Positions 2,303 through 57,978 of a stretch of 64,000 nucleotides of DNA are shown in pieces. The notes under the pieces were generated by a model that made no database searches, was not told the origin of the DNA, and saw only the letters and a list, made by a program, of their open reading frames with translations. Position numbers and translations under genes: made by a program. The DNA is taken from the IMG/VR virus record IMGVR_UViG_3300032070_000632, positions 13,055 through 77,054 of that record. One strand, given 5' to 3'. Origin of the DNA: a virus. The first letter of the stretch is position 1. The number at the start of each line of letters is the position of its first letter.

Positions 2303-2309
2303 AATAAAT

Positions 2310-2723: not shown

Positions 2724-2746
2724 AAATTAATCGCTGATATTTTTAT

Positions 2747-2762: not shown

Positions 2763-2790
2763 TGTTGTGGCTGTCTTTTTTTAAAAAAAT

Positions 2791-37183: not shown

Positions 37184-37592
37184 TTCTATCAATAGAGGTA
37201 TTATCTTTTCCAAATTGTTCACAATGTTTTGAATAACTTTTGTACATATCATTCTTAAAATCATTAAAATTTTTCCATAAACATTTTATCCCACGAGCAC
37301 CATAATATTTATAAGAAATATCATTTTTATTATAACATCTTTTTATTATTAAATAATAAATATTATAAAATTGCGTGCCGGACATTTTATGAATAATATG
37401 TTTTTGTGCACTGTTATAAATTGAACAATCACGACAATTTTTTTTAAATTTCAAAACATCACCTCTAGCAGAAAATTTTTTACCACATTTGCATTCACAA
37501 AGCCAATATATATGACCATTTTTTTTAAAATTAATTTTTTTAACAATAATCTTACCAAATTTTTTATTAGTTAAATCAATTATTTTTTTCAT
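37137..37592 (-). pseudogene. HNH-type homing endonuclease, C-terminally truncated
   Basis: DLTNKKFG, WLCECKCG, YGARGI, SIDRINN, then no NY..NCRW motif; runs into the endolysin 3' end. Confidence 0.65.
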
Positions 37593-39883: not shown

Positions 39884-39947
39884 ATTTTCGGCGGAATTAA
39901 TAAAAAAATACTTTTCAACAATAAAAAATAAGGGGATAGATAATATA

Positions 39948-40093
39948 CTTGACAAAAACGTCTAAAAGTGTTTGTTCGTCTACACGAACAAATGATATTA
40001 ATATAATTAATAATTATATAATTAATAATATATATATATATATATAATATGTTCGTCTACACGAACAAACACTTTTTTGACAATTCCGTCAAG
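39948..40093. other. putative replication origin: nested inverted repeats around a pure A/T core
   Basis: TGTTCGTCTACACGAACAAA at 39973 and 40050; 56 nt A/T-only 39995-40050; outer ~32 bp inverted arms; between initiator and helicase. Confidence 0.7.
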
Positions 40094-42077: not shown

Positions 42078-42371
42078 TCAACTTGCCTGCGTGTCAGCGG
42101 TTTCTGATTTCTTTGCTTTTATTTTTCCTTCCCAGTAATAAACATATACCGCTTGCGACACGGTGGCCGTAGCGGTGACTGTGGCGATAACCTGGGAAAC
42201 GCTTTCAAAAGCGGTTGCCAGCATAACTAAGATGCCGGCCGCTATTGAAGTCGCTAAGGCGATAGTATAGCGTTTCTTTTTGTCCGCTACTTTGGCATTG
42301 ACATATGCAATCGCCGGAGGTAAAATAATTCCAAGTAGAGATGAAATGCTGACTGGTATTAATTCATTCAT
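42078..42371 (-). CDS. holin-like membrane protein
   Basis: 2-3 TM segments, SQAVY motif, basic tail. Confidence 0.6.
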   Translation of the reverse strand: MNELIPVSISSLLGIILPPAIAYVNAKVADKKKRYTIALATSIAAGILVMLATAFESVSQVIATVTATATVSQAVYVYYWEGKIKAKKSETADTQAS

Positions 42372-42438: not shown

Positions 42439-42467
42439 TTGACTTTTTTTAAAAGATGGTGTATAAT
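42439..42467 (+). promoter_or_regulatory. sigma70 promoter; likely leaderless transcript
   Basis: TTGACT-17-TATAAT; ATG 42474 lies 7 nt after the -10 box. Confidence 0.75.
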
Positions 42468-42473
42468 GACAAT

Positions 42474-43409
42474 ATGGTATCAGGCAAAGCAAAAGCAAAA
42501 GATAAAATAGATTTCAACGACAAGAAGCTTATCAGTTATACCCGCTTCTCGTCGTTTATGAATTGTCCCTATAAATTCAGTCTAAAATATAAAAAAGGGA
42601 TAAGACCGGAAAAAGAATCTGTTAAATATTCTTTTGGAAAAGCCATGCACGCCGCATTGGCTTATTTTTATGAAACGAAATGCACGGAAGAAATGGCGAT
42701 TGAATATTTTTCTTTAATTTGGGAGGAGATGACTAAAAGCGAAGCGATTGATTATGGCACTAAAAAAGTGACTAAGGCGATGGTTAAAGAAGACCCAGGA
42801 CTAGCTGATGAAGAGCATGTGGCTATCACGCCAGCTTATTATCTTGATTTGGGGGCAAGGATGCTGATGAGTTATTTTGAAACTTATCGGGGAGAAAAAA
42901 TAGAGGTTGTCGGGGTGGAACAATCATTTACTTGTCCGTTTAAAAATCCGGACACTAATTATAAAAACAGAAGATGGGAATTAACCGGCGTGATTGATTT
43001 ATTGTTAAAAAATGAAGATGGAACTTATGAATTTTGGGACCATAAAATGATGGGGAAAAAAGTCAGTGCCGGCGTATTTCAACTTTCTCATCAGGTTCCG
43101 GCTTATATTTTAGGGGCCGCTTTTTTGCTTCAAATTCCCATTGATAAAATTAAAAGATGCGTTTTTAATATTATTTATAAAACCGGAGATTTAGAATGTG
43201 AACGGATAGAGGTGACGAGGACTAAGGAAGAAATGACCATGTTTTTTAAACAATTGACGCATGTCGCTAAGGCGATTGATAATGATAAAATTTTTCAAAA
43301 TTTTAGTTTTGCCTGTGCTTCTTGCGAATATCTTAATTATTGTTTGGGGAAAAAGGATAAATATCTCGATACGATATTTTCCGATGCCGAAGACCCCGAT
43401 GAATTATAA
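42474..43409 (+). CDS. PD-(D/E)XK RecB/Cas4-like exonuclease
   Basis: ISYT...CP, GKAMH, GVIDL...DHK, Q..AY, CASCEY..YC. Confidence 0.88.
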   Translation: MVSGKAKAKDKIDFNDKKLISYTRFSSFMNCPYKFSLKYKKGIRPEKESVKYSFGKAMHAALAYFYETKCTEEMAIEYFSLIWEEMTKSEAIDYGTKKVTKAMVKEDPGLADEEHVAITPAYYLDLGARMLMSYFETYRGEKIEVVGVEQSFTCPFKNPDTNYKNRRWELTGVIDLLLKNEDGTYEFWDHKMMGKKVSAGVFQLSHQVPAYILGAAFLLQIPIDKIKRCVFNIIYKTGDLECERIEVTRTKEEMTMFFKQLTHVAKAIDNDKIFQNFSFACASCEYLNYCLGKKDKYLDTIFSDAEDPDEL

Positions 43410-44121: not shown

Positions 44122-44925
44122 ATGCCAAGCGAAACTGTTAAACAGTCAGTGGGAATAATCGGTATGGGTGTATTAGGCCGTGCGATTAAGAATTATTATA
44201 AAAATGCTCTCGTATTTGACATCAATCCGGAAATCGATTCCAATGATTTTAATTTGGTCGCCCAACGAGACTGGGTTTTTGTTTGCGTCCCCACTCCATC
44301 AACCGCAGATGGAAAAATTGATTTATCGGCGATAGAGGAAACGATAGAAAGATTGAGCAAGACGGCTATTTATGAAAAAACTAAAATAGTCATTAAATCA
44401 ACCGTCGTTCCTGGCACCGCCCAACGATTGCAGGACCAGTATCCGCATTTACAGATTATTTCCTGTCCGGAATTTTTAACGGAGAACACGGCTTGTGAAG
44501 ATTTTGCTTATCCGGACAAAAATATAATCGGTACTACCAGGCAATACCCGCGGCTCGGAGCAGACCTGGCCAGAATATTGCCGGTGGCACCGGTTTTAAT
44601 TATGACTTCAACGGAAGCGGAAATGGTTAAGTATGCCATTAATTCTTATTACGCCATGAAAGTTATTTTTGCGAATGAATTGTATGATTTATGCGAGGCA
44701 TTGGATGCAAATTATAATGCCGTGCATCGAGGATTGGTGGCTGATAAGAGAATTAATGATTCTCATTTTTCTATCTTTCACGGCACGCATCGTGGTTTCG
44801 GCGGAAAATGTTTAACAAAAGATACTATGGCTATTGTTGAAAAGGGCAAAGAGCTTGGAATTGATATGGGTCTGTTAAAACAGGTTTTAGAATTAAATAA
44901 AAAATTTATTAAGATAACTTTTTAA
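44122..44925 (+). CDS. ugd: UDP-glucose/GDP-mannose 6-dehydrogenase family, lacking C-terminal domain
   Basis: GMGVLG, CVPTP, KSTVVPGT, PEFL, GFGGKCLTKD. Confidence 0.9.
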   Translation: MPSETVKQSVGIIGMGVLGRAIKNYYKNALVFDINPEIDSNDFNLVAQRDWVFVCVPTPSTADGKIDLSAIEETIERLSKTAIYEKTKIVIKSTVVPGTAQRLQDQYPHLQIISCPEFLTENTACEDFAYPDKNIIGTTRQYPRLGADLARILPVAPVLIMTSTEAEMVKYAINSYYAMKVIFANELYDLCEALDANYNAVHRGLVADKRINDSHFSIFHGTHRGFGGKCLTKDTMAIVEKGKELGIDMGLLKQVLELNKKFIKITF

Positions 44926-44941
44926 ATATTAATAAAAATAT

Positions 44942-45184
44942 ATGGGAATACCATCGATTAAAATAGTGGAGAGTGAAGAAAATGAGAAAGAAAAAATACT
45001 TTCTCATGGCAACATTCACTCTATCAGAAAAGATATTGACGGAATAATCAAGAGAGTGAAAGAAATACAATTATCAACTCCCGATTCACGCCAGAATGAC
45101 CTTGCTTATCAGCGGACGATAGAACACGCCATTGTCGGGCTGATTGAAGCTAAAATGTGGCTCGGCGAATATATAGTGTTATGA
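44942..45184 (+). CDS. small helical protein resembling Acb2/Tad1 nucleotide-sponge hairpin
   Basis: IRKDID..I.RVKE...R...AI..L.EAKMWLG. Confidence 0.5.
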   Translation: MGIPSIKIVESEENEKEKILSHGNIHSIRKDIDGIIKRVKEIQLSTPDSRQNDLAYQRTIEHAIVGLIEAKMWLGEYIVL

Positions 45185-45855
45185 TTGAAGTATGCTTCTG
45201 CGTTTATAAAAGATGGCAGCGTGTGCCGGATATTTTGCAAAATTTATTAAACCAAACAAATCAAGATTTTAAAGTTAATATTTGGAATAACAGCGGTCAG
45301 AATCTGGATGTCAGCAAATTTCCCGCCGGTCGGATTCAAGTGATTGATTTGGGATGCAATCTTGGTTCGGCCGCCAGATTTAAAATAGTGCCACGGACAA
45401 TGGGAAATCCAATAATATTTTTTGATGATGATGAAATTTTAGATAATGATTTTGTTGATTATTATTGGAAACAATATCAGAAATTCGGACCAGATTATAT
45501 TTTAGGATGGTTCACGAGAATTTTTAACCAAGAACATTATTGGCACTCAATTCCTTATTCTATTTATGGCACGGAGGTTGATTATGTCGGTACTGGCGGA
45601 ATGATATTAGACCGGAAAATTTTTGACCAGGAACAGTCTTTAGCGGATATACCGGAAGAGTTTAGCCGAGTCGAAGATTTGTATTTAGGTTATATTGCCA
45701 GAATGAAATATGGCATGAAATTATCGGCGATTGAGAAAAAATGTTCTATTATGGTAGATGTCCATGACCAATTCCGGTCGTTGACTGATTATAAACAAAA
45801 AACCTTTTTATTCATGCGACAGAAAGGGTGGAAAATTTTAAAAGATAAAATATGA
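45181..45855 (+). CDS. glycosyltransferase, GT-A fold
   Basis: IWNN, IFFDDD, VGTGGM, VEDL. Confidence 0.8.
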   Translation: MIEVCFCVYKRWQRVPDILQNLLNQTNQDFKVNIWNNSGQNLDVSKFPAGRIQVIDLGCNLGSAARFKIVPRTMGNPIIFFDDDEILDNDFVDYYWKQYQKFGPDYILGWFTRIFNQEHYWHSIPYSIYGTEVDYVGTGGMILDRKIFDQEQSLADIPEEFSRVEDLYLGYIARMKYGMKLSAIEKKCSIMVDVHDQFRSLTDYKQKTFLFMRQKGWKILKDKI

Positions 45856-46439
45856 ATATTGAAAAAGAAAAAGAATATTGGAATAAAAGATACGCCAGCA
45901 ATAAAACCAGTGGTGGCGGTTCATATGGAGAAGAGGCTGAATTTAAGTTAAAATCAATTAATGAATTTATTATCGATAAAGAAAAAATAAGAACAATAGT
46001 TGATGTTGGTTGCGGGGACTTCAATATTGGTTCGCAATTCATTAAATTTTTTCCCAACGCCAAATATTTAGGATTGGATGTTTCTAACGAGATAATCAAA
46101 AGACATCAAAAAAAATACATATCAGATAATTTACGGTTTGACGTAATTAACGAAAATAGAGGATTGATTTTCTTCTGTCCGGATATTCTTATTTGTTTTG
46201 ATATGTTGTTTCATGTGATGGATGACGAAACTTATAATAATATTTTAGAAAATTTAAAAAAATCATGGAGAAACTATCTTTTAATTGCTACCTATAACGA
46301 TACCAGATTGGATATGCCGTATGATTTGAATTATATAAAAAAGAGAAAATTTGACCCTAAATTTTTTGCTGAGGAATGGAAAGAAATTTTAATCCCTTTC
46401 TACGATGGAAATAAATCATTATATTTTTTCACTAAATAA
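45852..46439 (+). CDS. class I SAM methyltransferase
   Basis: SGGGS, VDVGCGD, LGLDVS, DMLFH. Confidence 0.9.
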   Translation: MNIEKEKEYWNKRYASNKTSGGGSYGEEAEFKLKSINEFIIDKEKIRTIVDVGCGDFNIGSQFIKFFPNAKYLGLDVSNEIIKRHQKKYISDNLRFDVINENRGLIFFCPDILICFDMLFHVMDDETYNNILENLKKSWRNYLLIATYNDTRLDMPYDLNYIKKRKFDPKFFAEEWKEILIPFYDGNKSLYFFTK

Positions 46440-46442
46440 TTT

Positions 46443-47036
46443 ATGCCCATAGCCAGACCAGATGTGATACCGTTCGTTTGCGAATGGTTTAGCCAAAAAA
46501 GCATTAAAGAAATAAAAAGCGTTTTGGATGTGGGGAGCGGTTTTGGCTTGTGGGGATTTTTAGCCAGGCAATATATTCAGATTTGGCAGCCAGGAATAAA
46601 AGAAGATGACTACATAAATTTTAAAAATAAGATGAGAGTTGATGCGATTGAGATAGTTGATTTTTACGTTACCGACATCCAGCGTCAAATTTACAATAAC
46701 ATTTATTGTGCCGACATGCGGATAAACTTGCCATCGTTAAGCTGGTATGACCTTATAATCTGCGGCGATATTTTAGAACATATCAATTTTACTGACGGAC
46801 TAAAACTTTTAGAGGAAATGAGAAGGCGGTCAAGATGGGTAATAATAACTATGCCTGATTATTTTGCCAGAGGAAATGAGATAATGGGGCAGATAAGCGA
46901 TTTGCACGAATATGTCTGGAAAGACAATGATTTCCCCGACCGGCCAGTTGTTACCCATATTAACAAACAAAAAGTAATTATTTACGAAGATTCTAATTAT
47001 GCCGACAAAAGAAAACTCTTTGAAAAATCTCGTTGA
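46443..47036 (+). CDS. class I SAM methyltransferase
   Basis: VLDVGSGFGLWG, GDILEH. Confidence 0.88.
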   Translation: MPIARPDVIPFVCEWFSQKSIKEIKSVLDVGSGFGLWGFLARQYIQIWQPGIKEDDYINFKNKMRVDAIEIVDFYVTDIQRQIYNNIYCADMRINLPSLSWYDLIICGDILEHINFTDGLKLLEEMRRRSRWVIITMPDYFARGNEIMGQISDLHEYVWKDNDFPDRPVVTHINKQKVIIYEDSNYADKRKLFEKSR

Positions 47037-47619
47037 TTTTAAAAAAGTAATGGACGAACTAAAGATATTTTTTTGGTTAGATTCCGGCACTTTACTCGGG
47101 GCTTATCGTGATAAAAATATTATTACCGGCGACGAGGATGACAGCGATATTTGCATGTGGAAAGACAATGCGGTCCGCAGTCCTGAATTTCTAAAAAAAT
47201 TAAGAGAAGCCGGATTTTCCATTCTGCATGATTGGCGGTTTGTCAATGCCACTTCCGAAGGAATTGGCATTAAAAGGGATGGCAATAAGATTGATATTGT
47301 CATGATGCACCGCAAGAAAAACGAACATGGCGATGTGGCGTTTTATTTGTCCAGAAATTTTAGCGGACAAATGGGTTCAATGCCCTATTATGCCTTTGTC
47401 TTCCCTGGAAAACTGTATGATGAATTTAATGAAATAGAATTAGGCGGAGTTAAATATAATTGTCCTAAAGATGTTGAGGGATATTTAGTGGCTCGCTACG
47501 GCCAAAATTGGAATATTCCAATTTTACGTGGACAGGGTTGGAATCCTATCGACCCGTCTAATAATCCTTGTCATCGCACTAACTGGAAATATGACGACCC
47601 AAAAGCAATGCTCTACTAG
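46999..47619 (+). CDS. LicD-family phospho(no)transferase
   Basis: FWLDSGTLLGAYRD...DDSDI, YLVARYG.NW..P. Confidence 0.88.
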   Translation: MPTKENSLKNLVDFKKVMDELKIFFWLDSGTLLGAYRDKNIITGDEDDSDICMWKDNAVRSPEFLKKLREAGFSILHDWRFVNATSEGIGIKRDGNKIDIVMMHRKKNEHGDVAFYLSRNFSGQMGSMPYYAFVFPGKLYDEFNEIELGGVKYNCPKDVEGYLVARYGQNWNIPILRGQGWNPIDPSNNPCHRTNWKYDDPKAMLY

Positions 47620-48460
47620 GGTTGATTCCCTTTATGAGCTTTTACAAAAAAATAAATTTGTCAGAGTGCTTGAGGCCCATAATGGCTTGTCTGGTTTAAT
47701 TGTGGAAAATTCAGACTTTGATGCCATTTGGGAGAGTTCATTGACTGATTCGGCTTCTAAGGGCTTGCCGGACATCGAACTGGTTAGTATGGATTCCAGG
47801 ATGGAAACTATCAGGCAGATTATTGACGTGACCACCAAGCCGATTATTGTTGATGGCGACACCGGCGGCCAGATTGACCATTTTCCGTATTGGGTAAATA
47901 AAATGGAGAAGGCTGGCGTATCAGCCGTGATTATTGAAGATAAAGCATTTCCTAAAAGGAATAGTCTGGATGAAAGTGCCCAACATCAGTTAGAAGAAGT
48001 GGATATTTTTGCTAAAAAGATTGAAGCCGGAGTAAAAGCGAAGATGAACGATAAATTTATGATTATCGCCCGTTTGGAAAGTTTGATTGCCCAGCATTCA
48101 GTTTATGAAGCGTTAATCAGAGCCGAGGCATTTTTGAAAGCTGGCGTGGACGGGATTATGATTCATTCTAAAGAAAAAATTTCTGCCACGGAAGTTTTTG
48201 AGTTTGCAAGAAGATTTAAAATGATGTCAAAAAAACCATTGGTTTGCGTACCTACCACTTATAATGATATTTTTGAACAACAATTACAGGAGGCGGGATT
48301 TAATATAGTTATTCATGCCAACCACTTATTGCGGGCATCTTTTAAAGCAATGGAGAAAGCAGCGGAAAAAATTTCCGTCAATCACCGCAGTAAGGAATTG
48401 GATGATGATATTTCTTCGGTGAAAGAAATATTTAACATTGTCGGTTATGATAAATTATAA
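47591..48460 (+). CDS. pepM: phosphoenolpyruvate mutase
   Basis: EAHNGLSG, DSASKGLPDIE, DGDTG, diagnostic EDKAFPKRNS (EDKx5NS), ARLESLI. Confidence 0.95.
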   Translation: MTTQKQCSTRVDSLYELLQKNKFVRVLEAHNGLSGLIVENSDFDAIWESSLTDSASKGLPDIELVSMDSRMETIRQIIDVTTKPIIVDGDTGGQIDHFPYWVNKMEKAGVSAVIIEDKAFPKRNSLDESAQHQLEEVDIFAKKIEAGVKAKMNDKFMIIARLESLIAQHSVYEALIRAEAFLKAGVDGIMIHSKEKISATEVFEFARRFKMMSKKPLVCVPTTYNDIFEQQLQEAGFNIVIHANHLLRASFKAMEKAAEKISVNHRSKELDDDISSVKEIFNIVGYDKL

Positions 48461-49628
48461 AAAAATTATTGAGTGTTTAAAGGAAAATGAAATTAAATTT
48501 ATTACTGGCGTTCCAGACAGTACGCTTAAGCACATAATCTGTGCTATCGCCGACGATAAAGATTTTCAACACGTTCCAGCCACTAATGAAGGAGAGGCCG
48601 TGGCCTTGGCAGCCGGATATTTTTTTGCCACAGGAAAAGTTCCCATGGTATATATGCAAAATGATGGATTATTTAATGCTGCTAATGCTTTAGCTTCGTT
48701 ATGCAGTTTTAATGTTTATGACGTCCCGATGCTTTTAATGATTGGCAAACGTGGCATTGAAGGCGATGAGCCACAACATTTAATGGCAGGAGAAATGTTG
48801 GAAGATTTTTTAAAATTATTACATATCCCCTGTAATTATCAACATATAGAAAATAATGAAAATATTGAAGATGAAATTTTGGAAGACCTTAGTTCAGCAA
48901 TAATTTACGCTCGCCGAGAAATACGTCCGGCAGCCATTATTTTTCAAAAAGGAAGTATCTATGATTTAGAAGAAAAAAATAAAATTGGAACGACGGAACC
49001 ATCAATGCGGGAGAAGTGCCTTGATATTTTATTGAACTATATCGGTATAGGTATAGTTGTTTCCACTACTGGTTTAACTTCTCGTGAATTGTATGAATTG
49101 AGGAAAAAAAGAGGTGAAAAAACAGATGATATTTTAATGGTTGGTTCTATGGGATGTGCTTCGGCGATTGGTTTAGGCGTAGCACTTCAAGAAAATAACG
49201 ATTATCAGCACGATAAGTCGAGTTACCGCAATGTTTATGTTCTGGATGGTGATGGAGCGGCTTTAATGATGTTGGGAAATATGGCTACTATCGGTTATTA
49301 TCTGCCGGAAAATTTAGTGCATATTATTTTTGACAATGGCGGTTATGTCAGCACGGGCAAACAACAACGGATAGGTGATAGAATTAATTGGCAAATGCTC
49401 GCCCAGGGATTGGGATATTATACTTTTAAAGAGGTTGACGGCCGAAGCATGGCTGAAACTAAATGTTTCGGTAAATTGGGTGAAATATTGGATTTTCATA
49501 AAATGCCTATGCCGGCATTGATAGTGATTAAAATTGACCAGTCGGTCCGTGGTGATTTAGGCAGACCAAAAGATTTAAAGGAAATCAGAAAAAATTTTAT
49601 GATTAAAATTTTTAACAAAGACATATGA
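48447..49628 (+). CDS. ppd: phosphonopyruvate decarboxylase
   Basis: GVPDS, NEGEAV, YMQNDG, DEPQH, STTG..SREL, VGSMG, DGDGA TPP motif, LGRP. Confidence 0.95.
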   Translation: MINYKKIIECLKENEIKFITGVPDSTLKHIICAIADDKDFQHVPATNEGEAVALAAGYFFATGKVPMVYMQNDGLFNAANALASLCSFNVYDVPMLLMIGKRGIEGDEPQHLMAGEMLEDFLKLLHIPCNYQHIENNENIEDEILEDLSSAIIYARREIRPAAIIFQKGSIYDLEEKNKIGTTEPSMREKCLDILLNYIGIGIVVSTTGLTSRELYELRKKRGEKTDDILMVGSMGCASAIGLGVALQENNDYQHDKSSYRNVYVLDGDGAALMMLGNMATIGYYLPENLVHIIFDNGGYVSTGKQQRIGDRINWQMLAQGLGYYTFKEVDGRSMAETKCFGKLGEILDFHKMPMPALIVIKIDQSVRGDLGRPKDLKEIRKNFMIKIFNKDI

Positions 49629-50620
49629 TTCTATACGGAGATTTCAAAGAAAAAATTAAAAAAATAACAAAGAGAGAATTTGGCGTGGAAATGCTGGTTT
49701 TAACTAATGATGTTTTTAAAGAATTTATTTTGGAAAATCCTAATGGGTTGACAGTGCCTGCCAATCCGACTGATAAATTTTTAGATAAAGCCAGAAGTTT
49801 CGCCAGCGACCGATTTTATAAAGGACCATTCAAATTTATTGTTTCCATCGGCGGCGGGTCGGTAATTGACGTGGGAAAAATATTATCAGTATTATTTGAA
49901 ATTCCGCACATTGTCGTGCCTACCACCTGCGGAAGCGGAAGCGAAGCAACTTCCTATGCGGTGATAATAGAAAAAGAAAAAAAGGAAACAATAACTAATA
50001 AAGAGTTTTTGCCTAAATATGTGGTTTATGATGAATATTTTTTAAAAGAAATTGACCATAATAAAGAGGCAATAGCATTAATAGCTGGAGTATTTGATGT
50101 ATTATGCCATTGCGTTGAATCTTATCTTTCGCCAAAATCAACTCCAGTAAGTGAAAAATATGTCCATAAGGCGATAAATTTATGGAAAAGATTTTCTTGG
50201 CAATGGTTGGATGGACAAAAAAAAGCATCATTGGAAATGTTTGAAGCGGCATTTTATGCCGGCAAAGCGATTGATATTACGCAGACTGGAATTTGCCATG
50301 CTGTTTCTTATCCACTAACAACAAAATATGGCATACCACATGGCTTGGCGGCCGCATCCATGCTGGCAACTTTAATTTTTTATATCGACCAATTAGATAA
50401 AAAAGCGGAAGAAAGATTCTATCAGTTATTTTCCAAAAAAGAAAGATACGGATTGCTCGGGTTGATAAGTATTTACTGCAAAATGGAAGAAATGAAAAAA
50501 CTTTTTAAAAAAATTGATATTGAATATGTTATGAAAGAGGCAAAAAAATCTTCCAGATTTAAGAATAGTATTTTAAAATTGCCACCTAAATTTATTTATT
50601 TTTTCAATTATGTTAAATAG
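49625..50620 (+). CDS. Fe-containing alcohol dehydrogenase, putative phosphonoacetaldehyde reductase
   Basis: GGGSVIDVGK, PTTCGSGSEAT, D..CH..ES, CHAVSYPLT, PHG; follows ppd. Confidence 0.88.
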   Translation: MILYGDFKEKIKKITKREFGVEMLVLTNDVFKEFILENPNGLTVPANPTDKFLDKARSFASDRFYKGPFKFIVSIGGGSVIDVGKILSVLFEIPHIVVPTTCGSGSEATSYAVIIEKEKKETITNKEFLPKYVVYDEYFLKEIDHNKEAIALIAGVFDVLCHCVESYLSPKSTPVSEKYVHKAINLWKRFSWQWLDGQKKASLEMFEAAFYAGKAIDITQTGICHAVSYPLTTKYGIPHGLAAASMLATLIFYIDQLDKKAEERFYQLFSKKERYGLLGLISIYCKMEEMKKLFKKIDIEYVMKEAKKSSRFKNSILKLPPKFIYFFNYVK

Positions 50621-51047
50621 AATAGGTTATCTCCCAATGACGGCTGATTTGTTGCATGTCGGGCACATTCACGCCATTTCTCAAAGTCTTGTTTTTTGCC
50701 GTCATTTAATAATTGGCTTATTAAACGACAAAGCGATTGAAGATTATAAAGAAAAACCGCCAGTAATACCATTTAAAGAAAGAAAAGCGATGTTGGAATA
50801 TGTTTTGCCGTTTTTTTCAAAACATACCGGTCAGACTACCCAAATTGTTGAACAAGATAATATTGATTTTACCGAAAATTTAAAAAAATATAAACCGGAT
50901 TGCGTATTGAGCGGGGATGGCTGGCAAGAAGAAGAAAGAAAATCTGCGGAAAAACATAAATGCAAATTAATTAATTTTAAATATTATCCGCATCAAAGCA
51001 CAACAATGATAAAAAACAGAGTAAGAGAACTTTATGCCGATATTTGA
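50610..51047 (+). CDS. HxGH cytidylyltransferase
   Basis: MTADLLHVGH, IGLL.D, ERK, GDGW, QSTT. Confidence 0.9.
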   Translation: MLNRIGYLPMTADLLHVGHIHAISQSLVFCRHLIIGLLNDKAIEDYKEKPPVIPFKERKAMLEYVLPFFSKHTGQTTQIVEQDNIDFTENLKKYKPDCVLSGDGWQEEERKSAEKHKCKLINFKYYPHQSTTMIKNRVRELYADI

Positions 51048-51693
51048 ATCTAATGGCAAGAAATTTTTTTATAACGATGATAACGACAGTCCACGGATGG
51101 CCGGCGGAGAGATGAATAATTTATACCGCCTGCCGAAAGATTTGAAGATAGTAATTGACATTGGTGCTCATATGGGAGGCACGGCGGTTTATGGAGCTAC
51201 GCTGGGAGCCGAGGTATATGCTTACGAGCCGGACAGAATTATATTTGATTTATTTAAAAAAACGATTGCTGAAAATTTACTGGAAAAAAAGATACACGCT
51301 TTCAATTTAGCCGTTTGCGATGTCAGTAAGGGAAGATTTAGAAAATTATATCAGCATCCGGTTTATTCGGTTTATAATTCAATTTGCGAACCATATCTGA
51401 ATACTAGAAATTTTCAAAACAAATCTTATTATTATGTTAAAACAATTTCTTTAGCCGAAATATTCAGTGAAAATAAAATTGACGTCTGCGATGTTTTAAA
51501 AATTGATTGCGAGGGCAGTGAAGAAGAGATATTATTTTCCGCTGATAAAGAATTATTTAGCAGAATAAAACAAATATCAGTGGAAATAGACGGCGATGAC
51601 AACCAAAAGAATAAAATAGTTGATTTTTTAAAAAAGTTTTACCCTCGTATGGAAACAATAAAAAATGAGATATTTTTCTTTTATCAAGTATGA
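51034..51693 (+). CDS. FkbM family methyltransferase
   Basis: IDIGAHMG, AYEP, LKIDCEGSE. Confidence 0.9.
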   Translation: MPIFESNGKKFFYNDDNDSPRMAGGEMNNLYRLPKDLKIVIDIGAHMGGTAVYGATLGAEVYAYEPDRIIFDLFKKTIAENLLEKKIHAFNLAVCDVSKGRFRKLYQHPVYSVYNSICEPYLNTRNFQNKSYYYVKTISLAEIFSENKIDVCDVLKIDCEGSEEEILFSADKELFSRIKQISVEIDGDDNQKNKIVDFLKKFYPRMETIKNEIFFFYQV

Positions 51694-52262
51694 AATTATT
51701 AATTGTTGCCCACTTAGATGACGAAATATTATGGTTTAATACCGTTGAGTTTGATTTAATAATCATTGTTTTTTTAGGTAGGATTGACCGGCCGGATATT
51801 GAAAAAGGAAGATATAAAGTATTGGAAAATCATCCTTTTAAAGATAAAATTTTATGTCTTGGTTATACCGAAACTAATTATTGGCGGGACCGGAGCAAAC
51901 GGGAATTGTACGAATCTCAATTAATGTCTTTGGTAAATTATTTAACTGAATGGAAAAAGACAAACAAACCTAACCAGATATTTACGCATAATCCTTGGGG
52001 AGAATACGGGCATTCTGACCATGTTTTAGTCCATAAGGCGGTAATGAAAGCATTTCCAGAAATTAATAAATTTGGCTTGGCTAAAGGAATTTTATCAGCT
52101 GAGGGCAGAGAATCGGAAATCGACCCGTCATTGACTTTTACTGGCATTATGGACATACCGCAATTTATTAGGATAAGAGATTTATATTTGAAATGCGGTG
52201 CCTGGACGTGGAGTTTAGATTACTATCCGGAATTAAAGACAACTTATTATTTAATGAAATAA
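51690..52262 (+). CDS. PIG-L/LmbE-like de-N-acetylase
   Basis: VAHLDDE, THNPWGEYGHSDH. Confidence 0.85.
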   Translation: MKLLIVAHLDDEILWFNTVEFDLIIIVFLGRIDRPDIEKGRYKVLENHPFKDKILCLGYTETNYWRDRSKRELYESQLMSLVNYLTEWKKTNKPNQIFTHNPWGEYGHSDHVLVHKAVMKAFPEINKFGLAKGILSAEGRESEIDPSLTFTGIMDIPQFIRIRDLYLKCGAWTWSLDYYPELKTTYYLMK

Positions 52263-52264
52263 TT

Positions 52265-52477
52265 ATGTTTACGGCGATTACAATGTTAGTTTGGGCGATT
52301 TTATGGAAGATATTAAATATTTATCCTCCGCAAGATTTAAGCGATGTTGTTTTGATAGCGGTTGGGATAATGAGCACGTTATGGGCAATGAGCGAAGATA
52401 TTTCTATAATTACTTTTTTAAATAAAAAATATGGCAAAGAAGAAAAAAATTGGCAAAAAACATCCATCCAGGAATAA
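52265..52477 (+). CDS. small membrane protein
   Basis: Two hydrophobic segments from ATG 52265. Confidence 0.45.
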   Translation: MFTAITMLVWAILWKILNIYPPQDLSDVVLIAVGIMSTLWAMSEDISIITFLNKKYGKEEKNWQKTSIQE

Positions 52478-52633
52478 GAGAAACAAAGTTTTTGTCGGTC
52501 ATAAAAAAATAGTTCCTGACTATGGAGATAATGATGAATAATTGGCAGACTGATTGGCTAGCATTAATTGGTGCCATAATAATAACGGCAATTATTGTAA
52601 TTTTTTTGATAACATGTTTATTAGAATAATTTT

Positions 52634-53323
52634 ATGAAAAATAAAAATCCATTAATCAGCGTCGTCAATGCCACCTATAACCAGAGAGAATGGGTTGACC
52701 AATTATTAATTTCCTTGAAAGAACAAACTTACCGGCCGTTGGAAATTTTGATTGTCGGCGACGGATGCACTGATTATACCCAAGAGATAACGGAAAAATT
52801 CGTCAAGGAAAATAATACTAAAGATTTTACTGTCCGGTTTATTGTCAAAGAACATACCGGCGTACAGGAGACACGCAATCGCGGACTGGATGAAGCTAAA
52901 GGTAAATATATAATTTTTCCTGATTCCGATTGTTTCTTATATCCGACTTGCTTGGAAAAAATGTGCAATGTTTTAGAGGTGGTGCCGTCCATTGGTTATG
53001 TTTATTGCGATATGGAAAATTTAGGATTTTATAATAACATTCATCGTAGCGGAGAATTTGATGAAGAACGGTTGCGGCGTGGAAATTATATCCCCGTGGT
53101 GGCTTTAATGCGGTTAATAGACCAGACTCCGCATTGGGACCCGCAGATTAAGCGGCATCAGGATTATGACGTCTGGCTTTCTTGGCTGGATAAAGGATTT
53201 CCTGGTTATTGGATAAATGAAGTTTTATTTAGACATCATACTCGCAATAATAGTTTAACCTTTACCAGTGTTTCTATCGCCGAAGCCAACGCCAGCGTTT
53301 GGCGAAAACATGGAATAATTTAA
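52634..53323 (+). CDS. GT2 glycosyltransferase
   Basis: ISVVNATYN, GDGCTD, RNRG, DSD, QDYD. Confidence 0.9.
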   Translation: MKNKNPLISVVNATYNQREWVDQLLISLKEQTYRPLEILIVGDGCTDYTQEITEKFVKENNTKDFTVRFIVKEHTGVQETRNRGLDEAKGKYIIFPDSDCFLYPTCLEKMCNVLEVVPSIGYVYCDMENLGFYNNIHRSGEFDEERLRRGNYIPVVALMRLIDQTPHWDPQIKRHQDYDVWLSWLDKGFPGYWINEVLFRHHTRNNSLTFTSVSIAEANASVWRKHGII

Positions 53324-53333
53324 TATAAAAAAT

Positions 53334-53516
53334 ATGAAAAAAACACATCGGTATTTATTAAAATTAATTAAGGGGAAGAAAACCAAACAAATAGAATTAG
53401 AATTTCCCAATACTGATACGCCAGTGGCTTATCTGGATAATTCAATAATAACCTTACGGCAAGCCGGTTATGAAATTAAAGCGGTTTATAAAGATATTGA
53501 TTGGTTTAATTTATGA
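53334..53516 (+). CDS. hypothetical protein
   Basis: 60 aa ORF with ATGA overlap. Confidence 0.5.
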   Translation: MKKTHRYLLKLIKGKKTKQIELEFPNTDTPVAYLDNSIITLRQAGYEIKAVYKDIDWFNL

Positions 53517-54235
53517 AAATAGCAACATTCACTTTAACCAGAGAACGACTTGATTATACGCAACGGACGTTCGCCGAAATCAAAGGCACGGCCGGCATTG
53601 AATTTGACCATTTTGTGCTGGACAACGGCTCAAGGGACGGAACTCCCGAATGGCTGGAAAAAAATAAAGATTTATTTAAGAAAGTGATTTTATCTCCCGA
53701 CAATAAAGGATTATGGGGAGGAATTAATATTATTTTAAAAGAAACTAATTTTTTTGAGGGATATAATTATGTGCTTAAATTAGACAACGACGTGGAATTT
53801 ATCACTGATTGTTGGTTGAGAAGGTTGGCTTTAATGTCTGCTGAGATGGGAAATAAAGTAGTTTTATCTCCTTATGTTGATGGTCTCGGGTCCGGTCTCG
53901 GCGGTGCCCCTCGTTATTCGCATGAACTTATCGCCGGCAATAAAATTAGTTACAGTCATCATGTCGGCGGAATATGTTTATTTACCAGTCAAGACGCTTA
54001 TAAAGCTAGCGGATATTTCCCTGGTTGTCTGGGAAAGGCACAGGGTTGGGATGTTTTTTTCTGCGGACGGGCAAAAAATATGGGATATAAAATCGCTTAT
54101 TTGGAAGACGTAAAAATAAAACATATGGATACGACCGTGGAACAGGAAAAAATCAGACCGGATTATTATAACCGAAAAGTCTTAGAAGCGAGGATTCCAT
54201 ATCGAGGAAATATTGATGATTATAAAATATTATGA
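53513..54235 (+). CDS. GT2 glycosyltransferase
   Basis: LDNGSRDGT, NKG, KLDND. Confidence 0.9.
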   Translation: MKIATFTLTRERLDYTQRTFAEIKGTAGIEFDHFVLDNGSRDGTPEWLEKNKDLFKKVILSPDNKGLWGGINIILKETNFFEGYNYVLKLDNDVEFITDCWLRRLALMSAEMGNKVVLSPYVDGLGSGLGGAPRYSHELIAGNKISYSHHVGGICLFTSQDAYKASGYFPGCLGKAQGWDVFFCGRAKNMGYKIAYLEDVKIKHMDTTVEQEKIRPDYYNRKVLEARIPYRGNIDDYKIL

Positions 54236-54906
54236 CAGTTTCAATAATTTTAATCACTTATAATTCCTGGCACGTCTTGCCGATGTTTTTTAAAGGATTG
54301 GAATTGGCGGATTATCCTTTTAGTTTATATGTGGTTGATAATTTTTCCCAACATCAACCAGATTTAGACAGAGTGGTTAGTGTTGGCGTAATGAATAATA
54401 ATAATTGCCGGCAAATTTCATTGATAAAAAATAAAGAAAATTTAATGTATACTAAGGCGGCCAACCAAGGGATGATAGTGGCCGATGGTGAGTTGTTTCT
54501 TTTAATGAATCCGGATTGTTATGGCGTTGATAGTGGCTGGCTTAAAAAAATGATTGAATATTGGGAACAATATCGACCAGATGTGGCCGGCTATAAATTA
54601 GTGCGACCTGACTTACGGGAGATAGAACATGCCGGAGCTCATGCTCCTGGCGTGCATGAGGGCAAGGGCGAACAGGACAACGGACAATATGATGAGCCAA
54701 GAGAATTAATGAGAGCCGACCAGTACGTAACCGGTGCTTGCTGGATGATTGCTAAAACCACTATTGATAAATATGGATTATTGCCGGAAGAGCATGTTCA
54801 TTATGCTTCGGACAGGGAATATTGTTTTAATGTTAGGAATAATGGCGGACATATCTGGTATTTTCCTACAAAAATGGTTCATATGTTTGGAAAAAGTTGT
54901 CTATAA
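54232..54906 (+). CDS. GT2 glycosyltransferase
   Basis: ITYN, VVDN, AANQG, MNPD, VTGAC, SDREYC. Confidence 0.9.
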   Translation: MTVSIILITYNSWHVLPMFFKGLELADYPFSLYVVDNFSQHQPDLDRVVSVGVMNNNNCRQISLIKNKENLMYTKAANQGMIVADGELFLLMNPDCYGVDSGWLKKMIEYWEQYRPDVAGYKLVRPDLREIEHAGAHAPGVHEGKGEQDNGQYDEPRELMRADQYVTGACWMIAKTTIDKYGLLPEEHVHYASDREYCFNVRNNGGHIWYFPTKMVHMFGKSCL

Positions 54907-54927
54907 AAATAATTAATAATTTATTAT

Positions 54928-55836
54928 ATGAACAAACTAAAAATATTTTTTCCAGTTGATACTTCATGGGGTTTAGTCATGCACCGGATAACTTATGACA
55001 TTCAGCGATTCGCACCGCATGATAAGTTCGAATTTGTGGACACCTATGAAAAATGCGACATTGCTTTCTGGCATTTAATCGGACCAAACAAAGTGCAAAA
55101 AGAAAAACCTTACGTAATACTCTTCCATTGTTTTGGCCGAGACCGAGGAGAGATAGCCATGCGGGAAATTTGGCTGGAAAATTTCAAACAAGCGGAAATG
55201 GTTTATGGTTATTATCCGCTCCATAAATTTATTGGCGAAGATGACATGAAAGAAATAAATTATGTTCGCCAGCCATGGGGGGTTGATAATACTATTTTTT
55301 ATCGGATGCCGGAAGTGAAAAAGCAATTTACCTGCGTGGCCACTGGTTATGTGGCTCAAACTGAGGCATTATTGGAATTATATCGTGCCTGCAAGGCAGT
55401 TGGCGGGAAATTGCTTCATATCGGCGGTTCGTTGGATAGAGAAGTCGGTCTGTTAAATCCGATGTATTACGAACGTATCTGTAATGTCAGTGATGATGAT
55501 ATGCGGCGAGCGTACAATTCCGCCTACTGGGTTTCCGGATTGCGGCGAGTTGAAGGTTATGAAATTCCGGCTTTGGAAGGATTTGTCTGTGGCGCCCAGC
55601 CTATTTGTTTTAATATTGAAGACTTTTATCCGTATTGGTTTGGCGATTTTGCTAATTTTATTCCCCAAGGGAGTGTTGATGATACAACGGAGGCATTGGC
55701 AAAATTATTTTCCGTTCAGCCGTTGATAAACAGCAAAAAGATAGAGGAAATAAAGAATAAATTTGATACGGAAAAATTATCTCGGGGATTTTGGGATGTT
55801 TTAATACAATCATTAACTAATAAAAAAATTATATGA
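54928..55836 (+). CDS. GT-B (GT4-like) glycosyltransferase
   Basis: WGVD..IF, YNSA, EGYEIPALE (Ex7E). Confidence 0.82.
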   Translation: MNKLKIFFPVDTSWGLVMHRITYDIQRFAPHDKFEFVDTYEKCDIAFWHLIGPNKVQKEKPYVILFHCFGRDRGEIAMREIWLENFKQAEMVYGYYPLHKFIGEDDMKEINYVRQPWGVDNTIFYRMPEVKKQFTCVATGYVAQTEALLELYRACKAVGGKLLHIGGSLDREVGLLNPMYYERICNVSDDDMRRAYNSAYWVSGLRRVEGYEIPALEGFVCGAQPICFNIEDFYPYWFGDFANFIPQGSVDDTTEALAKLFSVQPLINSKKIEEIKNKFDTEKLSRGFWDVLIQSLTNKKII

Positions 55837-57209
55837 AAAAGCCAACCGCAAAATCTATAATTTCTCGACAACTTGACCGACGGGGGCGGGAGATGGGAAA
55901 TAAAAAAATTAAAATTTTATGTTACTGCGATACGCCAACGGCCATCACCGGCTTTGCCACCGTTTCTAAAAATATTTTAAAACAGCTTTATAATACCGAA
56001 AAATATGAAATCGTGGTCTGGGGCATAAACTATTACGGCTTGCCGTACGACCATAATGAATTTCCCTATGAAATTTATCCGGCTTCTTATGCCGACCACA
56101 ATGATTTATACGGACGGAACGCTTTTGTCAATTTTATGAGCCAGATTGATTTTGATATTTTATGGACGCTTAATGACCCATCGGTAGTGGATACTTTCTT
56201 GCCGGAAGCAGTTGTGGAATTACGTCGGCAAGCACCGAATAAAATTTTTCAATGGATTTTTTATTTTCCGATTGACAGCGAGTTTATCCGCCGGTCTTGG
56301 TTCACGCCAATTATGACCGCTGATTTTCCGGTCTGTTATAATCAATGGACTTACGACCAATTGACGGCCGCCGCTCCCGAATTAAAACGTGATTTACGGG
56401 TAATACCGCACGGCATTGACGCCAATGATTTCTTCCCTATTTCCAATGAAGAAAAATTAGCGTTTCGCAAAGATTATTGGAAAGGAATGATAAATGACGA
56501 TACTTTCTTAGTAATTAACGTCAACCGCAACCAGCAGCGAAAAGATTTTTACCGTACGCTGAAAGCGTTTAAACTGTTTAAAGACAAATATCCTAATTCT
56601 CATTTATACATTCATTGCAAGGTTGATGACGTCGGCGGCAATTTAATGGAAATAGCTGCTCAAGTCGGCTTAATCCCCAAACAGGATTTTTCTTATCCCC
56701 ATCCCGATAAATTTCATCCCGCCACCGGCATGCTGATTGACGTGCTGAATAAGATTTATAATGTCGCCGACATTGTAATGTCAACGACGCTGGGAGAAGG
56801 TTGCGGACTTTCTTCTCACGAAGCGTTTGCCACAAAAACTCCGATTGTAATGCCTAACCATACCGCTTTGATTGAAACGCTAAAAGACGGCAGGGGATTT
56901 GCCGTCAAAGCGGGTGGCGATAATAATTTGTGGGAAGTTATGCCAATGGATAATTCAATTATCCGGCCATTGACTGATGTTGACGATATGGCAAAAAAAC
57001 TCGGCGAAGCATACAACAACCGCCGAGAGCTTAAAGCAATGGGAGAGCGTGGCTATAATTGGGTGATGAACCGGACTTGGAGCAAGGTTTGCCGAGAATG
57101 GAATGACTTGTTTGAGCAAGCCGCCGAGAAAACTTTATTATTGCGTCAGGGGAAGATTATGAATTTTGGTGGTGCTGTTGGTAAAGATGTTGGAGCTGTC
57201 CGTCAGTAA
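55833..57209 (+). CDS. GT4 glycosyltransferase
   Basis: TGFA, PHGID, NRNQQRK, EGCGLSSHE (Ex7E). Confidence 0.9.
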   Translation: MKKPTAKSIISRQLDRRGREMGNKKIKILCYCDTPTAITGFATVSKNILKQLYNTEKYEIVVWGINYYGLPYDHNEFPYEIYPASYADHNDLYGRNAFVNFMSQIDFDILWTLNDPSVVDTFLPEAVVELRRQAPNKIFQWIFYFPIDSEFIRRSWFTPIMTADFPVCYNQWTYDQLTAAAPELKRDLRVIPHGIDANDFFPISNEEKLAFRKDYWKGMINDDTFLVINVNRNQQRKDFYRTLKAFKLFKDKYPNSHLYIHCKVDDVGGNLMEIAAQVGLIPKQDFSYPHPDKFHPATGMLIDVLNKIYNVADIVMSTTLGEGCGLSSHEAFATKTPIVMPNHTALIETLKDGRGFAVKAGGDNNLWEVMPMDNSIIRPLTDVDDMAKKLGEAYNNRRELKAMGERGYNWVMNRTWSKVCREWNDLFEQAAEKTLLLRQGKIMNFGGAVGKDVGAVRQ

Positions 57210-57978
57210 AGTGAGTATAACGCTGGGTAGTGAGTATGGAAGTATGCCCCAGCATTTCCTGCACTGCCCTAATATCCAGTCCCGTATTCATTAAGTTAGT
57301 GGCGAATGAATGCCGCAGGGTATGGGGAGTGATTTGTTTAAAAGGCACGCCGATTTTAGCGGCGGCCTTTTTAATTATTTTTTGAATGGTGCGGGGAGTG
57401 GTCGGATTTTGTCCGCCAAAAAGAAACGGGCTGGACGCTATCCGCAAGAGCAGGTCTTTGGTGCGGTCGGTAAAGAAAACCAGCCGAGCTTTTCCCCGCT
57501 TGCCGATTATGGTTATTTTTTTATCGGCAAAGTCAATTTTTTCCGTGCGGATATTCGTCATTTCCGACACTCGCAAGCCCGTATCGTAGAGCAGGGAAAT
57601 AACCGCCCTGTCCCTGTCGGTATCGCAGGAATTAAAAAGTCGTCCGATTTCCTGCGGGTCTAAAAAAGAAATATATTTATCCGCCATTTTCGGCAGGACG
57701 ACCGCCTCACTGCCGATTATTTCTTGGCAGTGTTTGTTTTGGTATTTAAGAAAACTTTTCAAAGCGACTAAATAATGACGCTGGGTAATGGACTGGTATT
57801 TGTTTGCCAGATATTGCGTATAATCCATTAAGTCTTTTTCCGTGATTAGTTTTAATTCTTTGTCGCCGCACCAGCCGCTAAACGCGGACAGGCGTATGCC
57901 GTATGCTTTGGCGGTCAAGGGCGAGGAGCGTAGCACCCCGCTTAAATAGGCGATAAAATTATCAATGTCTTTTTTCAT
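57157..57978 (-). CDS. XerC/D-like tyrosine recombinase
   Basis: TGLRVSE, GKRGK, HTLRHSFAT, LGH, TQRY. Confidence 0.93.
   Translation of the reverse strand: MKKDIDNFIAYLSGVLRSSPLTAKAYGIRLSAFSGWCGDKELKLITEKDLMDYTQYLANKYQSITQRHYLVALKSFLKYQNKHCQEIIGSEAVVLPKMADKYISFLDPQEIGRLFNSCDTDRDRAVISLLYDTGLRVSEMTNIRTEKIDFADKKITIIGKRGKARLVFFTDRTKDLLLRIASSPFLFGGQNPTTPRTIQKIIKKAAAKIGVPFKQITPHTLRHSFATNLMNTGLDIRAVQEMLGHTSILTTQRYTHFTDGQLQHLYQQHHQNS

Follow-up and report, generated by a model that had tools for sequence, protein, structure and literature searches.

A predicted phosphonoglycan operon in an uncultured sediment siphovirus and its possible destination on the virion

To our knowledge, glycosylation of virions by phage-encoded enzymes has been documented mainly for actinobacteriophages, with simple glycans, and phosphonate decoration has been documented only on cellular surfaces. 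In the mycobacteriophage Corndog, an O-methyltransferase and glycosyltransferases (gp35-38) are encoded between the gene for the portal and that for the protease and are suspected of modifying the capsid (PMC4351075), and glycans on capsid and tail-tube subunits of mycobacteriophages have been reported (Freeman 2023, as summarised in PMC12619734). Full-text searches of the literature turned up no account of phages that encode phosphonoglycan synthesis, nor of virions that carry phosphonate; a phosphonate survey of 364 huge phages gave one giant-virus metagenome-assembled genome as the sole viral case (PMC8942020), and, beyond this case, Borgs alone are named among extrachromosomal elements. 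Here, we analyse a 64,000-nucleotide stretch of DNA, referred to as the window, which comprises bases 13055-77054 of the 77,054-bp contig of IMG/VR virus record IMGVR_UViG_3300032070_000632, and in which a 13-kb operon (44122-57209) encodes glycosyltransferases, methyltransferases, a de-N-acetylase and a phosphonate module. From gene content and gene order, we propose that this operon and two transferases of the head module place a glycan capped with 2-hydroxyethylphosphonate (2-HEP) on virion proteins, before or during assembly, and we give this reading a probability of roughly 0.55.

Enzymes of the operon

The stretch 44122-57209 is a single tightly coupled operon, with every gene on the + strand and most junctions overlapping by 4-38 nt, and no strong terminator was found inside it. 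The original prediction had described mostly overlapping genes on one strand, and both this arrangement and, by Pfam and motif analysis, the gene content overall were borne out. The phosphonate branch starts with the phosphoenolpyruvate mutase PepM (also Ppm; 47591-48460; PF13714, E = 6e-55), the 289-residue form of which is the form on record. Its motif EDKAFPKRNS at residue 116, which is invariant across 22 relatives, fits the pattern EDKxxxxxNS that serves as the criterion parting true Ppm from its isocitrate-lyase relatives (PMC6697681). The gene for the phosphonopyruvate decarboxylase Ppd, a thiamine pyrophosphate enzyme (48438-49628; PF02776 and PF02775), overlaps the PepM stop and is syntenic with PepM in all related loci. 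A Ppd beside Ppm pulls the unfavourable equilibrium of the mutase. The next gene encodes an Fe-dependent alcohol dehydrogenase (Fe-ADH) of the PhpC/FomC type (49625-50620; PF00465 and PF25137), and a branch to 2-HEP through such an enzyme has been described (PMC8942020). Because PepM, Ppd and Fe-ADH are present and no aminotransferase family is among the Pfam results for any open reading frame (ORF) of the operon, the branch is predicted to yield 2-HEP and not the commoner 2-aminoethylphosphonate (AEP).

Activation and transfer of the head group are also represented. A cytidylyltransferase with an HVGH motif (50610-51047; Pfam PF01467) is the candidate maker of CMP-2-HEP, and its best PDB match, with E = 3.2e-15 over the full length, is 5x3d, a 160-residue chain that bears the name 'phosphoenolpyruvate phosphomutase' in its deposition and that we take to be the cytidylyltransferase domain of Fom1, the maker of CMP-HEP. 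The cytidylylation of HEP by Fom1 has been described, and LicD-like phosphotransferases are the expected transfer enzymes of phosphonoglycan clusters (both PMC6697681). A LicD-family phosphotransferase with a DEDDSD motif is encoded at 46999-47619 (PF04991, E = 1.3e-8, above the cut-off), and LicD adjoins PepM in many viral and bacterial loci. Families and catalytic motifs are intact at every step, so that the phosphonate module of the original prediction is present and the route from phosphoenolpyruvate to a HEP-phosphonylated sugar appears, on paper, to be complete. A second PF01467 cytidylyltransferase-like gene lies outside the window in the early region of the genome (L001:10894-11322); its best PDB match is 3glv (E = 1e-12), a nucleotidyltransferase of the lipopolysaccharide-core-biosynthesis type, and not Fom1.

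The predicted number of six glycosyltransferases was confirmed for the operon, with four enzymes of family GT2 and two that are GT4-like. GT2a (45157-45855; PF00535, E = 7e-8) stands near the start of the operon and the other three GT2 enzymes follow towards its end (52634-53323, E = 1.5e-24; 53513-54235, E = 1.6e-8; 54232-54906, E = 6.4e-13; all PF00535), the DxD motif being intact in the operon GT2 enzymes; an ORF of 60 residues (53335-53517) lies among these three genes. The last gene encodes GT4b (55833-57209; PF00534), and the gene before it, orf302 (54928-55836), is counted in through its fold and a family scan: it has no Pfam match, but its AlphaFold2 model (pLDDT 94.7) is of the GT-B type, with the GT4 enzymes BA1558 and BshA as the best Foldseek matches (E about 4e-11), and in its family of about 400 representatives a Glycos_transf_1 match was obtained for 13 of the 61 homologues scanned. 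Homologues of orf302 also form the C-terminal domain of two large proteins, P0265 (1458 residues) and P0251 (1076 residues), in each of which several GT-B domains can be seen by eye; P0265 may, on the same reading by eye, carry an intein-like insertion.

Three methyltransferases had been predicted, of which two are clear, namely an S-adenosylmethionine (SAM) methyltransferase (45852-46439; Methyltransf_25, 30 bits, above the Pfam cut-off) and an FkbM methyltransferase (51034-51693; PF05050, E = 1e-13). The third, a probable class I SAM methyltransferase (46443-47036), reaches 17.9 bits, below the Pfam cut-off, although the class I motif I, VLDVGSGFG, is visible and is aligned with the methyltransferase of the related contig L107. 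The PIG-L/LmbE-family de-N-acetylase was found as predicted (51690-52262; PF02585, E = 4e-8), with AHLDDE and HSDH intact. It is followed by two small hydrophobic ORFs, one of 70 residues with two transmembrane segments predicted from hydropathy (52265-52477) and one of 32 residues with a single segment (52533-52628). The former has a counterpart of 40% identity at the same position in L107.

The first gene of the stretch 44122-57209 encodes an NAD dehydrogenase of the Ugd family (44122-44925), as the original prediction had stated, with Pfam matches to PF03721 (UDPG_MGDP_dh_N) and to the central domain PF00984, and with the GxGxxG Rossmann motif and the catalytic Cys region kept. A full-length Ugd, however, is not what was found: the protein is a short form of 267 residues without the C-terminal nucleotide-sugar-binding (UDP-sugar) domain, UDP-glucose dehydrogenases in the PDB match only its residues 45-260 (about residues 75-315 of the solved enzymes), and a six-frame search detected PF03720 nowhere in the phage genome. 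An ORF of 80 residues just downstream (44942-45184) was considered as a detached C-terminal domain and was rejected, as it has no Pfam match and no PF03720 signal appeared in six frames. The gene was likewise considered as a pseudogene, which was rejected. Short forms of 267-282 residues occur near phosphonate genes in three viral contexts, namely 44122-44925 here, L107:1688-2506 (272 residues) and L091:9147-9995, and the enzyme is probably functional, given the 68% identity of the L107 form and the place of the L091 form beside PepM. Naming its product UDP-glucuronate is not justified, since the nucleotide-sugar-binding domain is lacking and is found nowhere else in the genome, and the uronic-acid part of the glycan had been claimed on the basis of this shortened enzyme.

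The enzymes appear to be soluble, as had been claimed: a Kyte-Doolittle scan with a 19-residue window gave no convincing transmembrane segment in any operon enzyme, although the two small membrane ORFs at 52265-52628 had been overlooked. In the complete 77,054-bp genome, six-frame searches with hidden Markov models found no PF01943 (Wzx), PF04932 (Wzy_C), PF01061 (ABC-2), PF04138 (GtrA), PF00953 (WecA/MraY) or PF02397 (Bac_transf), each of these models being positive in 10-14 of 14 control genomes. This confirms the reported lack of a flippase, polymerase, ABC exporter or initiating transferase, but a cytoplasmic acceptor does not follow from this lack by itself, because soluble glycosyltransferases can use lipid-linked wall precursors that the host exports.

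Assembled into a pathway, the enzymes would act as follows. PepM would turn phosphoenolpyruvate into phosphonopyruvate, Ppd would decarboxylate this to phosphonoacetaldehyde, Fe-ADH would reduce the aldehyde to 2-HEP, the Fom1-type cytidylyltransferase would form CMP-2-HEP, and LicD, with CMP-HEP as the donor, would then put the phosphonyl group on a hydroxyl of a sugar. The chain itself would be built directly on the acceptor, from nucleotide sugars of the host, by nine soluble glycosyltransferase domains (those of the six operon enzymes, of GT4a and of the MT-GT2 fusion described below), with PIG-L stripping an N-acetyl group and the methyltransferases capping hydroxyls. The product would be an O-methylated, partly de-N-acetylated oligosaccharide capped with 2-HEP, made by a self-contained, cytoplasmic kit; what the substrates are, in which order the enzymes act and where the glycan is attached are inferred here.

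A cytoplasmic set of glycosyltransferases may also act on DNA, and the original prediction had named DNA hypermodification as an alternative, in which the glycosyltransferases and LicD would put the phosphonoglycan on hydroxymethylated bases and so evade restriction. Phage glycosyltransferases often target DNA (PMC12619734), and several DNA methyltransferase genes in the phage point to an investment in DNA protection. However, a six-frame search of the complete genome found no thymidylate-synthase-family hydroxymethylase (PF00303), and the Pfam scans yielded neither a deoxynucleoside monophosphate kinase nor a DNA polymerase nor any further base-modification gene. The kit is also on another scale than known DNA-glycosylation modules, and its location next to capsid genes in related viruses does not fit them either, so that we consider this explanation very improbable.

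Transferases and kits among structural genes

The proposal of a virion glycan is carried mainly by where the transferases and the related kits lie. Two transferases are encoded inside the structural block of this phage, and in 15 related contigs the kit stands beside the structural genes, whereas the 13-kb operon itself lies outside it here. GT4a (14513-15583, + strand; phrog_7162, E = 8e-46; PF00534) is encoded three genes past the major capsid gene (12532-13581), inside the head module; it is conserved at the same position with 68.5% identity in L105, a related 10-kb viral contig, and homologues occur within the kit in ten PepM-bearing viral contigs. Its best GenBank homologue, in the complete podovirus genome MW202801.1, stands at the end of a block of glycosyltransferase, methyltransferase and NodB deacetylase genes that follows the capsid gene; Streptomyces phage Zuko has a homologue that forms a pair with a Ugd gene beside the terminase gene. 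The second transferase, in which a TylF-like O-methyltransferase is fused to a GT2 domain (MT-GT2; 19523-21088, + strand; PF13578, E = 7e-16; PF00535, E = 2e-17), is encoded in the head-to-tail module, between a BspA-type leucine-rich repeat (LRR) protein and an 899-residue repeat protein.

The proteins encoded around these transferases may include the acceptor. The LRR protein (17303-19138) consists of near-identical 23-residue units, with a pI of 4.4 and 27% Ser+Thr, and the 899-residue protein (21066-23765) is very basic, with Ser-rich repeats of about 20 residues; both are candidate fibre or decoration proteins. The gene after GT4a (15623-16697) is split by two group I introns, with two Rfam RF00028 matches, one of 92 bits at 15720-15912 and one of 43 bits, which is under the gathering score, at 16144-16332, and its exons match an intron-less viral protein of 168 residues (L105:9019-9525). 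The spliced protein of 169 residues is rich in Thr, Ala, Gly and Pro and is placed solely in viral clusters by the Atlas. Speculatively, the capsid protein, the 169-residue protein, the LRR protein and the 899-residue protein are candidate acceptors, and the three encoded around GT4a would be more plausible than the capsid protein. Sequence searches of the PDB gave no match for LicD, orf302, the methyltransferase at 46443-47036, the 168-residue head-module protein or the proteins c4 and c21 encoded past the kit in related contigs; orf302 and c4 were placed through the folds of their predicted structures.

The phosphonate module was followed in other genomes by alignment-based scans for PepM, with the loci compared by tblastn and clustering; pattern scans of viral and genome collections with the single PepM protein gave no match. 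Megablast of the operon against GenBank phages gave no match and no close homologue of PepM was found among them, and among about 185,000 species genomes no PepM homologue exceeds 57% identity, the nearest ones being taxonomically scattered. The scan of IMG/VR, by contrast, yielded 18 viral contigs, which share LicD, PepM, Ppd, Fe-ADH and the cytidylyltransferase and in which GT2a, GT2b, GT2c, PIG-L, FkbM and a GT4a homologue are variable. Of the 18, 15 have the kit directly downstream of a gene for the major capsid protein, in the order terminase, portal, (scaffold) and capsid. One representative each of the capsid clusters c8 and c12 was tested, which gave capsid matches to phrog_267 (E = 7e-33 and 3e-23), a large terminase match to phrog_2 (E = 1e-43) and a weak portal match. 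The first conserved gene past the kit, in 13 contigs, encodes a protein that folds as a podovirus head-to-tail adaptor, with the portal-tail complexes of cyanophage A4, GP4 and VP1 as the top Foldseek matches (E = 2e-6 to 1e-5). In this podovirus-like lineage, the capsid family of which differs from that of the present phage, the entire kit, as judged from gene order and predicted folds, is thus located between two core virion genes. This placement and the two transferases in the phage's own head module are the strongest available argument for the particle as the destination of the glycan.

The closest viral relatives of PepM (L085, L086 and L089; 67-70% identity) keep the order GT2a, LicD, PepM, Ppd and cytidylyltransferase found here; L085 and L086 continue to PIG-L, with FkbM in L085 only, and L089 ends inside PepM. 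GT2a homologues with 45-53% identity adjoin LicD-PepM in L085, L086, L088, L089 and L097, and the pair of FkbM and PIG-L after the cytidylyltransferase also occurs in L085 and L114. A true relative of the operon region is L107, a 14.8-kb metagenome contig, in which a nuclease gene and the short Ugd gene are followed by a swapped cassette (GT4, methyltransferase and NDP-sugar epimerase/dehydratase) and then by LicD, PepM, Ppd, Fe-ADH, the cytidylyltransferase, the small transmembrane ORF, three GT2 genes, orf302, a GT4 gene and the integrase; FkbM and PIG-L are lacking. Identities are 56-68% for most shared genes (56-65% for the three GT2 enzymes and 65-66% for orf302 and GT4b) and lower for Ppd, Fe-ADH, the cytidylyltransferase and the small transmembrane ORF. 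Because the operon is conserved in L107 with a swap of one cassette, comparison of the two loci indicates that it is a maintained, modularly varying trait of the lineage.

Some of the podovirus-type kits carry further enzymes. In L087, L092, L098 and L099 (for example, L099:4756-6306) and their neighbours, a B12-binding radical-SAM enzyme with an architecture like that of Fom3, a CMP-HEP C-methyltransferase, is encoded upstream of LicD-PepM, as are a NeuB-family nonulosonic acid synthase, a CTP_transf_3 CMP-sugar synthetase and a DUF4910/M28 protein. This gene content suggests that glycans of the podovirus type may contain hydroxypropylphosphonate and sialic-acid-like sugars.

A Fom3-like enzyme in some of the related viral kits is one of the points in favour of a soluble product that stays off the virion, namely a phosphonylated glycoside or small molecule acting as an inhibitor or signal, or else a glycosylated host protein or non-structural phage protein serving takeover or anti-defence. 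HEP and CMP-HEP are intermediates of fosfomycin and phosphinothricin (PMC6697681), all of the enzymes are soluble, and the operon is probably co-transcribed with an early-type nuclease gene. A LicD-type transferase and nine glycosyltransferase domains, however, indicate a polymer or glycoconjugate, no HEPD, epoxidase, peptide ligase or phosphonate-antibiotic resistance gene turned up in the Pfam scans, and the synteny with capsid genes elsewhere also speaks against such a product, which we regard as improbable.

Genome setting and the destination of the product

The phage comes from sediment metagenomes and is uncultured. The first and last 127 bases of the contig are identical, the IMG/VR class of the record is direct terminal repeats and the CheckV completeness is 100%. 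Reads of the probable source run contain the identical operon, a second sediment run gave fragments identical to it and a third gave diverged ones; joints in the read mapping all had short sides and were treated as spurious. No RNA run was listed as containing the operon. PHROG and Pfam searches revealed the layout of a siphovirus, with genes for the portal (6974-9193), a protease/scaffold protein (10148-12091), the HK97-type major capsid protein (12532-13581; phrog_29), the tape measure (27793-31836) and a beta-helix fibre (34295-36202), followed by a leftward replication block with DnaB (38411-39955) and a primase-like protein (37589-38407). Relatives of the capsid protein with 29% identity are scattered across phages of Gram-positive bacteria. 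The GC content is low, and no tRNA genes were found in the phage.

Several further features were observed outside the main subject. An ORF of 1400 residues (2791-6993) directly upstream of the portal gene, the C-terminal end of which matches a pre-portal ORF in L105 and L106, contains HNH-endonuclease-like segments at residues of about 1170-1310 and is probably a large terminase broken by intein or HNH insertions. A CAP-domain protein is encoded at 13-522. Outside the window, at 505-8941 of the genome (L001), there are genes for RadC, an N6/N4 DNA methylase, a C5-methylase/ResIII fragment, peptide deformylase and a HerA/Zot-like ATPase.

The operon is preceded by a gene for a PD-(D/E)XK or Cas4-like nuclease (42456-43409, + strand; PF12705, E = 1.9e-24). 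A promoter scan located strong sigma70-like promoters directly upstream of the nuclease gene, at 42298-42326 and 42439-42467; these are near-consensus and divergent, in a region common to the replication genes and the rightward unit, and the unit that runs into the glycan operon probably starts at the nuclease gene at 42456. The gene block 44122-57209 stands as originally delimited, but its start as a transcription unit probably lies further upstream. At its other end, the operon is overlapped by a convergent gene for a short tyrosine recombinase/integrase of 273 residues (57157-57978, - strand; phrog_1, E = 1.3e-50, catalytic part only).

This setting and several other observations weigh against delivery of the glycan to the virion. 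The 13-kb operon lies outside the late module, after the nuclease gene and against the integrase gene, and a position that begins with an early-looking nuclease and ends at an integrase is typical of conversion cargo. The conserved ORF with two transmembrane segments in the middle of the operon hints at some link with the membrane. The capsid protein lacks a Ser/Thr-rich tail at its C terminus, the Pfam match of LicD spans about 35 residues and covers the N-terminal motif only, and a tblastn search of GenBank phages with GT4a and the MT-GT2 fusion as queries returned no mycobacteriophage record at E <= 1e-3. Moreover, the phosphonate-LicD module of bacteria is predicted to serve cell-wall glycans (PMC6697681).

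Some of these points would suit remodelling of the host envelope, either by lysogenic conversion or during infection, in which the soluble glycosyltransferases, LicD and CMP-2-HEP would act at the cytoplasmic face on undecaprenyl-linked precursors of the host, such as those of wall teichoic acid, capsule or O-antigen, and a flippase or ABC exporter of the host would move the product to the surface, where the change might, for example, block superinfection. LicD enzymes normally decorate lipid-linked teichoic acid precursors, as in the Lic pathway of Streptococcus pneumoniae, and there are prophage-encoded cytoplasmic glycosyltransferases, such as TarP of Staphylococcus aureus, that work without an export gene; both count in favour of this explanation. 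The same holds for the position of the operon at one genome end, away from the late genes, with the same layout in L107, and for its own sigma70-like promoters, which are probable and which we place among the early genes. Four bacterial loci (L047, L062, L069 and L078) hold the same module of cytidylyltransferase, PepM, Ppd, Fe-ADH and LicD, and such clusters have been assigned to cell-surface phosphonoglycans (PMC6697681, PMC8942020).

Against remodelling of the envelope stand the closest viral kits, which lie between capsid and adaptor genes of podovirus-like contigs and fit surface conversion poorly, and the two further transferases of the set inside the phage's own head module. A glycan built de novo by nine glycosyltransferases far exceeds known conversion modules, and the phage encodes neither an initiating transferase nor GtrA nor a membrane enzyme of the GtrB type. 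Lysogeny is also unproven, as the recombinase is short and consists of the catalytic domain only and no repressor was identified. We judge this explanation unlikely on balance. Of the two alternatives that the original prediction had offered, the host surface pathway is thus still a live rival, and DNA hypermodification is unlikely.

The preferred reading, in which the acceptor is cytoplasmic and consists of virion proteins that receive a phosphonate-bearing, methylated glycan, remains the best explanation in view of the kits between capsid and adaptor genes elsewhere, although the operon lies outside the late module here and the argument is indirect. On a broader view, which we put forward tentatively and at somewhat less than even odds, environmental tailed phages of sediment and other habitats would coat their particles with a glycan bearing a carbon-phosphorus head group (2-HEP, possibly C-methylated and with nonulosonic acids in some relatives), produced by a mobile kit of some 8-13 kb that would have been inserted between capsid and adaptor genes in one lineage and divided in another, with part of it in the head module and part in an operon close to the integrase gene; virions would then be an unrecognised carrier as well as a source of biogenic phosphonate, and the phosphatase-resistant coat would shield or retarget the virion.

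If virion proteins do receive such a glycan, this would be a new kind of virion decoration, giving a surface that is hydrolysis-resistant, charged and methyl-capped, which could affect adsorption, stability, recognition by immune systems or grazers and resistance to host enzymes, and viruses would join the producers of environmental phosphonates. The system is directly testable, as co-expression of the enzymes and the neighbouring structural proteins in Escherichia coli is feasible, and compact sets of soluble enzymes, with LicD and a defined CMP-phosphonate donor, would be of use in glycoengineering.

Comparison with known systems

Compared with virion glycosylation in the mycobacteriophages Che8, Corndog and Myrna (Freeman et al. 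2023, as cited in PMC12619734), the present system is similar in that phage-encoded soluble glycosyltransferases are combined with one or more O-methyltransferases and no export machinery. As in systems of the Corndog type, in which the genes lie in or beside the structural operon, GT4a and MT-GT2 are encoded here between capsid and tail genes, and capsid or tail proteins, modified in the cytoplasm, are the proposed acceptors. The kit is larger, however, with nine glycosyltransferase domains compared with two to four, and contains a full route for the synthesis, activation and transfer of a phosphonate as well as a de-N-acetylase and a Ugd-family enzyme; its main operon stands beside the integrase gene and not in the late module, and its GC content is low.

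The Gtr modules of temperate enterobacterial phages resemble the operon as glycan-modifying cargo beside the integrase gene of a probably temperate phage. In Gtr systems, a single sugar is added in the periplasm by a set of three membrane proteins, whereas here there is neither GtrA nor a membrane-bound transferase and a whole decorated glycan would be built. The Lic pathway of S. pneumoniae (LicC and LicD), which puts phosphocholine on teichoic acids, likewise activates a head group, in CMP/CDP form, that LicD then transfers at the cytoplasmic face to a sugar of a glycopolymer; the head group here, however, would be a carbon-phosphorus compound made by the phage, and the cytidylyltransferase belongs to PF01467 and not to the LicC family, PF12804.

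The bacterial Pnt pathways (Ppm, Ppd, AEPT and PntC with a LicD-like enzyme; Rice et al. 2019, PMC6697681) share with the operon a true Ppm, Ppd and LicD beside glycosyltransferases, a cytidylyltransferase two genes from Ppm and nucleotidyl activation before transfer, the cytidylyltransferase here being of the PF01467/Fom1 type known from fosfomycin biosynthesis. The AEP transaminase predominates in surface-tailoring clusters, 56% of which are of the AEP kind and 8.5% of the HEP kind (PMC8942020), whereas an Fe-ADH, predicted to lead to 2-HEP, is found here. In further contrast to the Pnt pathways, the present set is encoded by a virus, without genes for export or for a lipid carrier, and related phages hold the cluster between capsid and adaptor genes.

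In conclusion, the parts of this system are all of known kinds, namely virion glycosylation, tailoring of the Pnt and Lic type and activation of the Fom1 type, and their combination in a virus together with a position in the structural module is new. A motif-intact phosphonate route, seen repeatedly with capsid genes on one side and adaptor genes on the other in at least 15 independent viral contigs, would extend both fields, that of phage virion glycosylation and that of phosphonate tailoring of cell surfaces.

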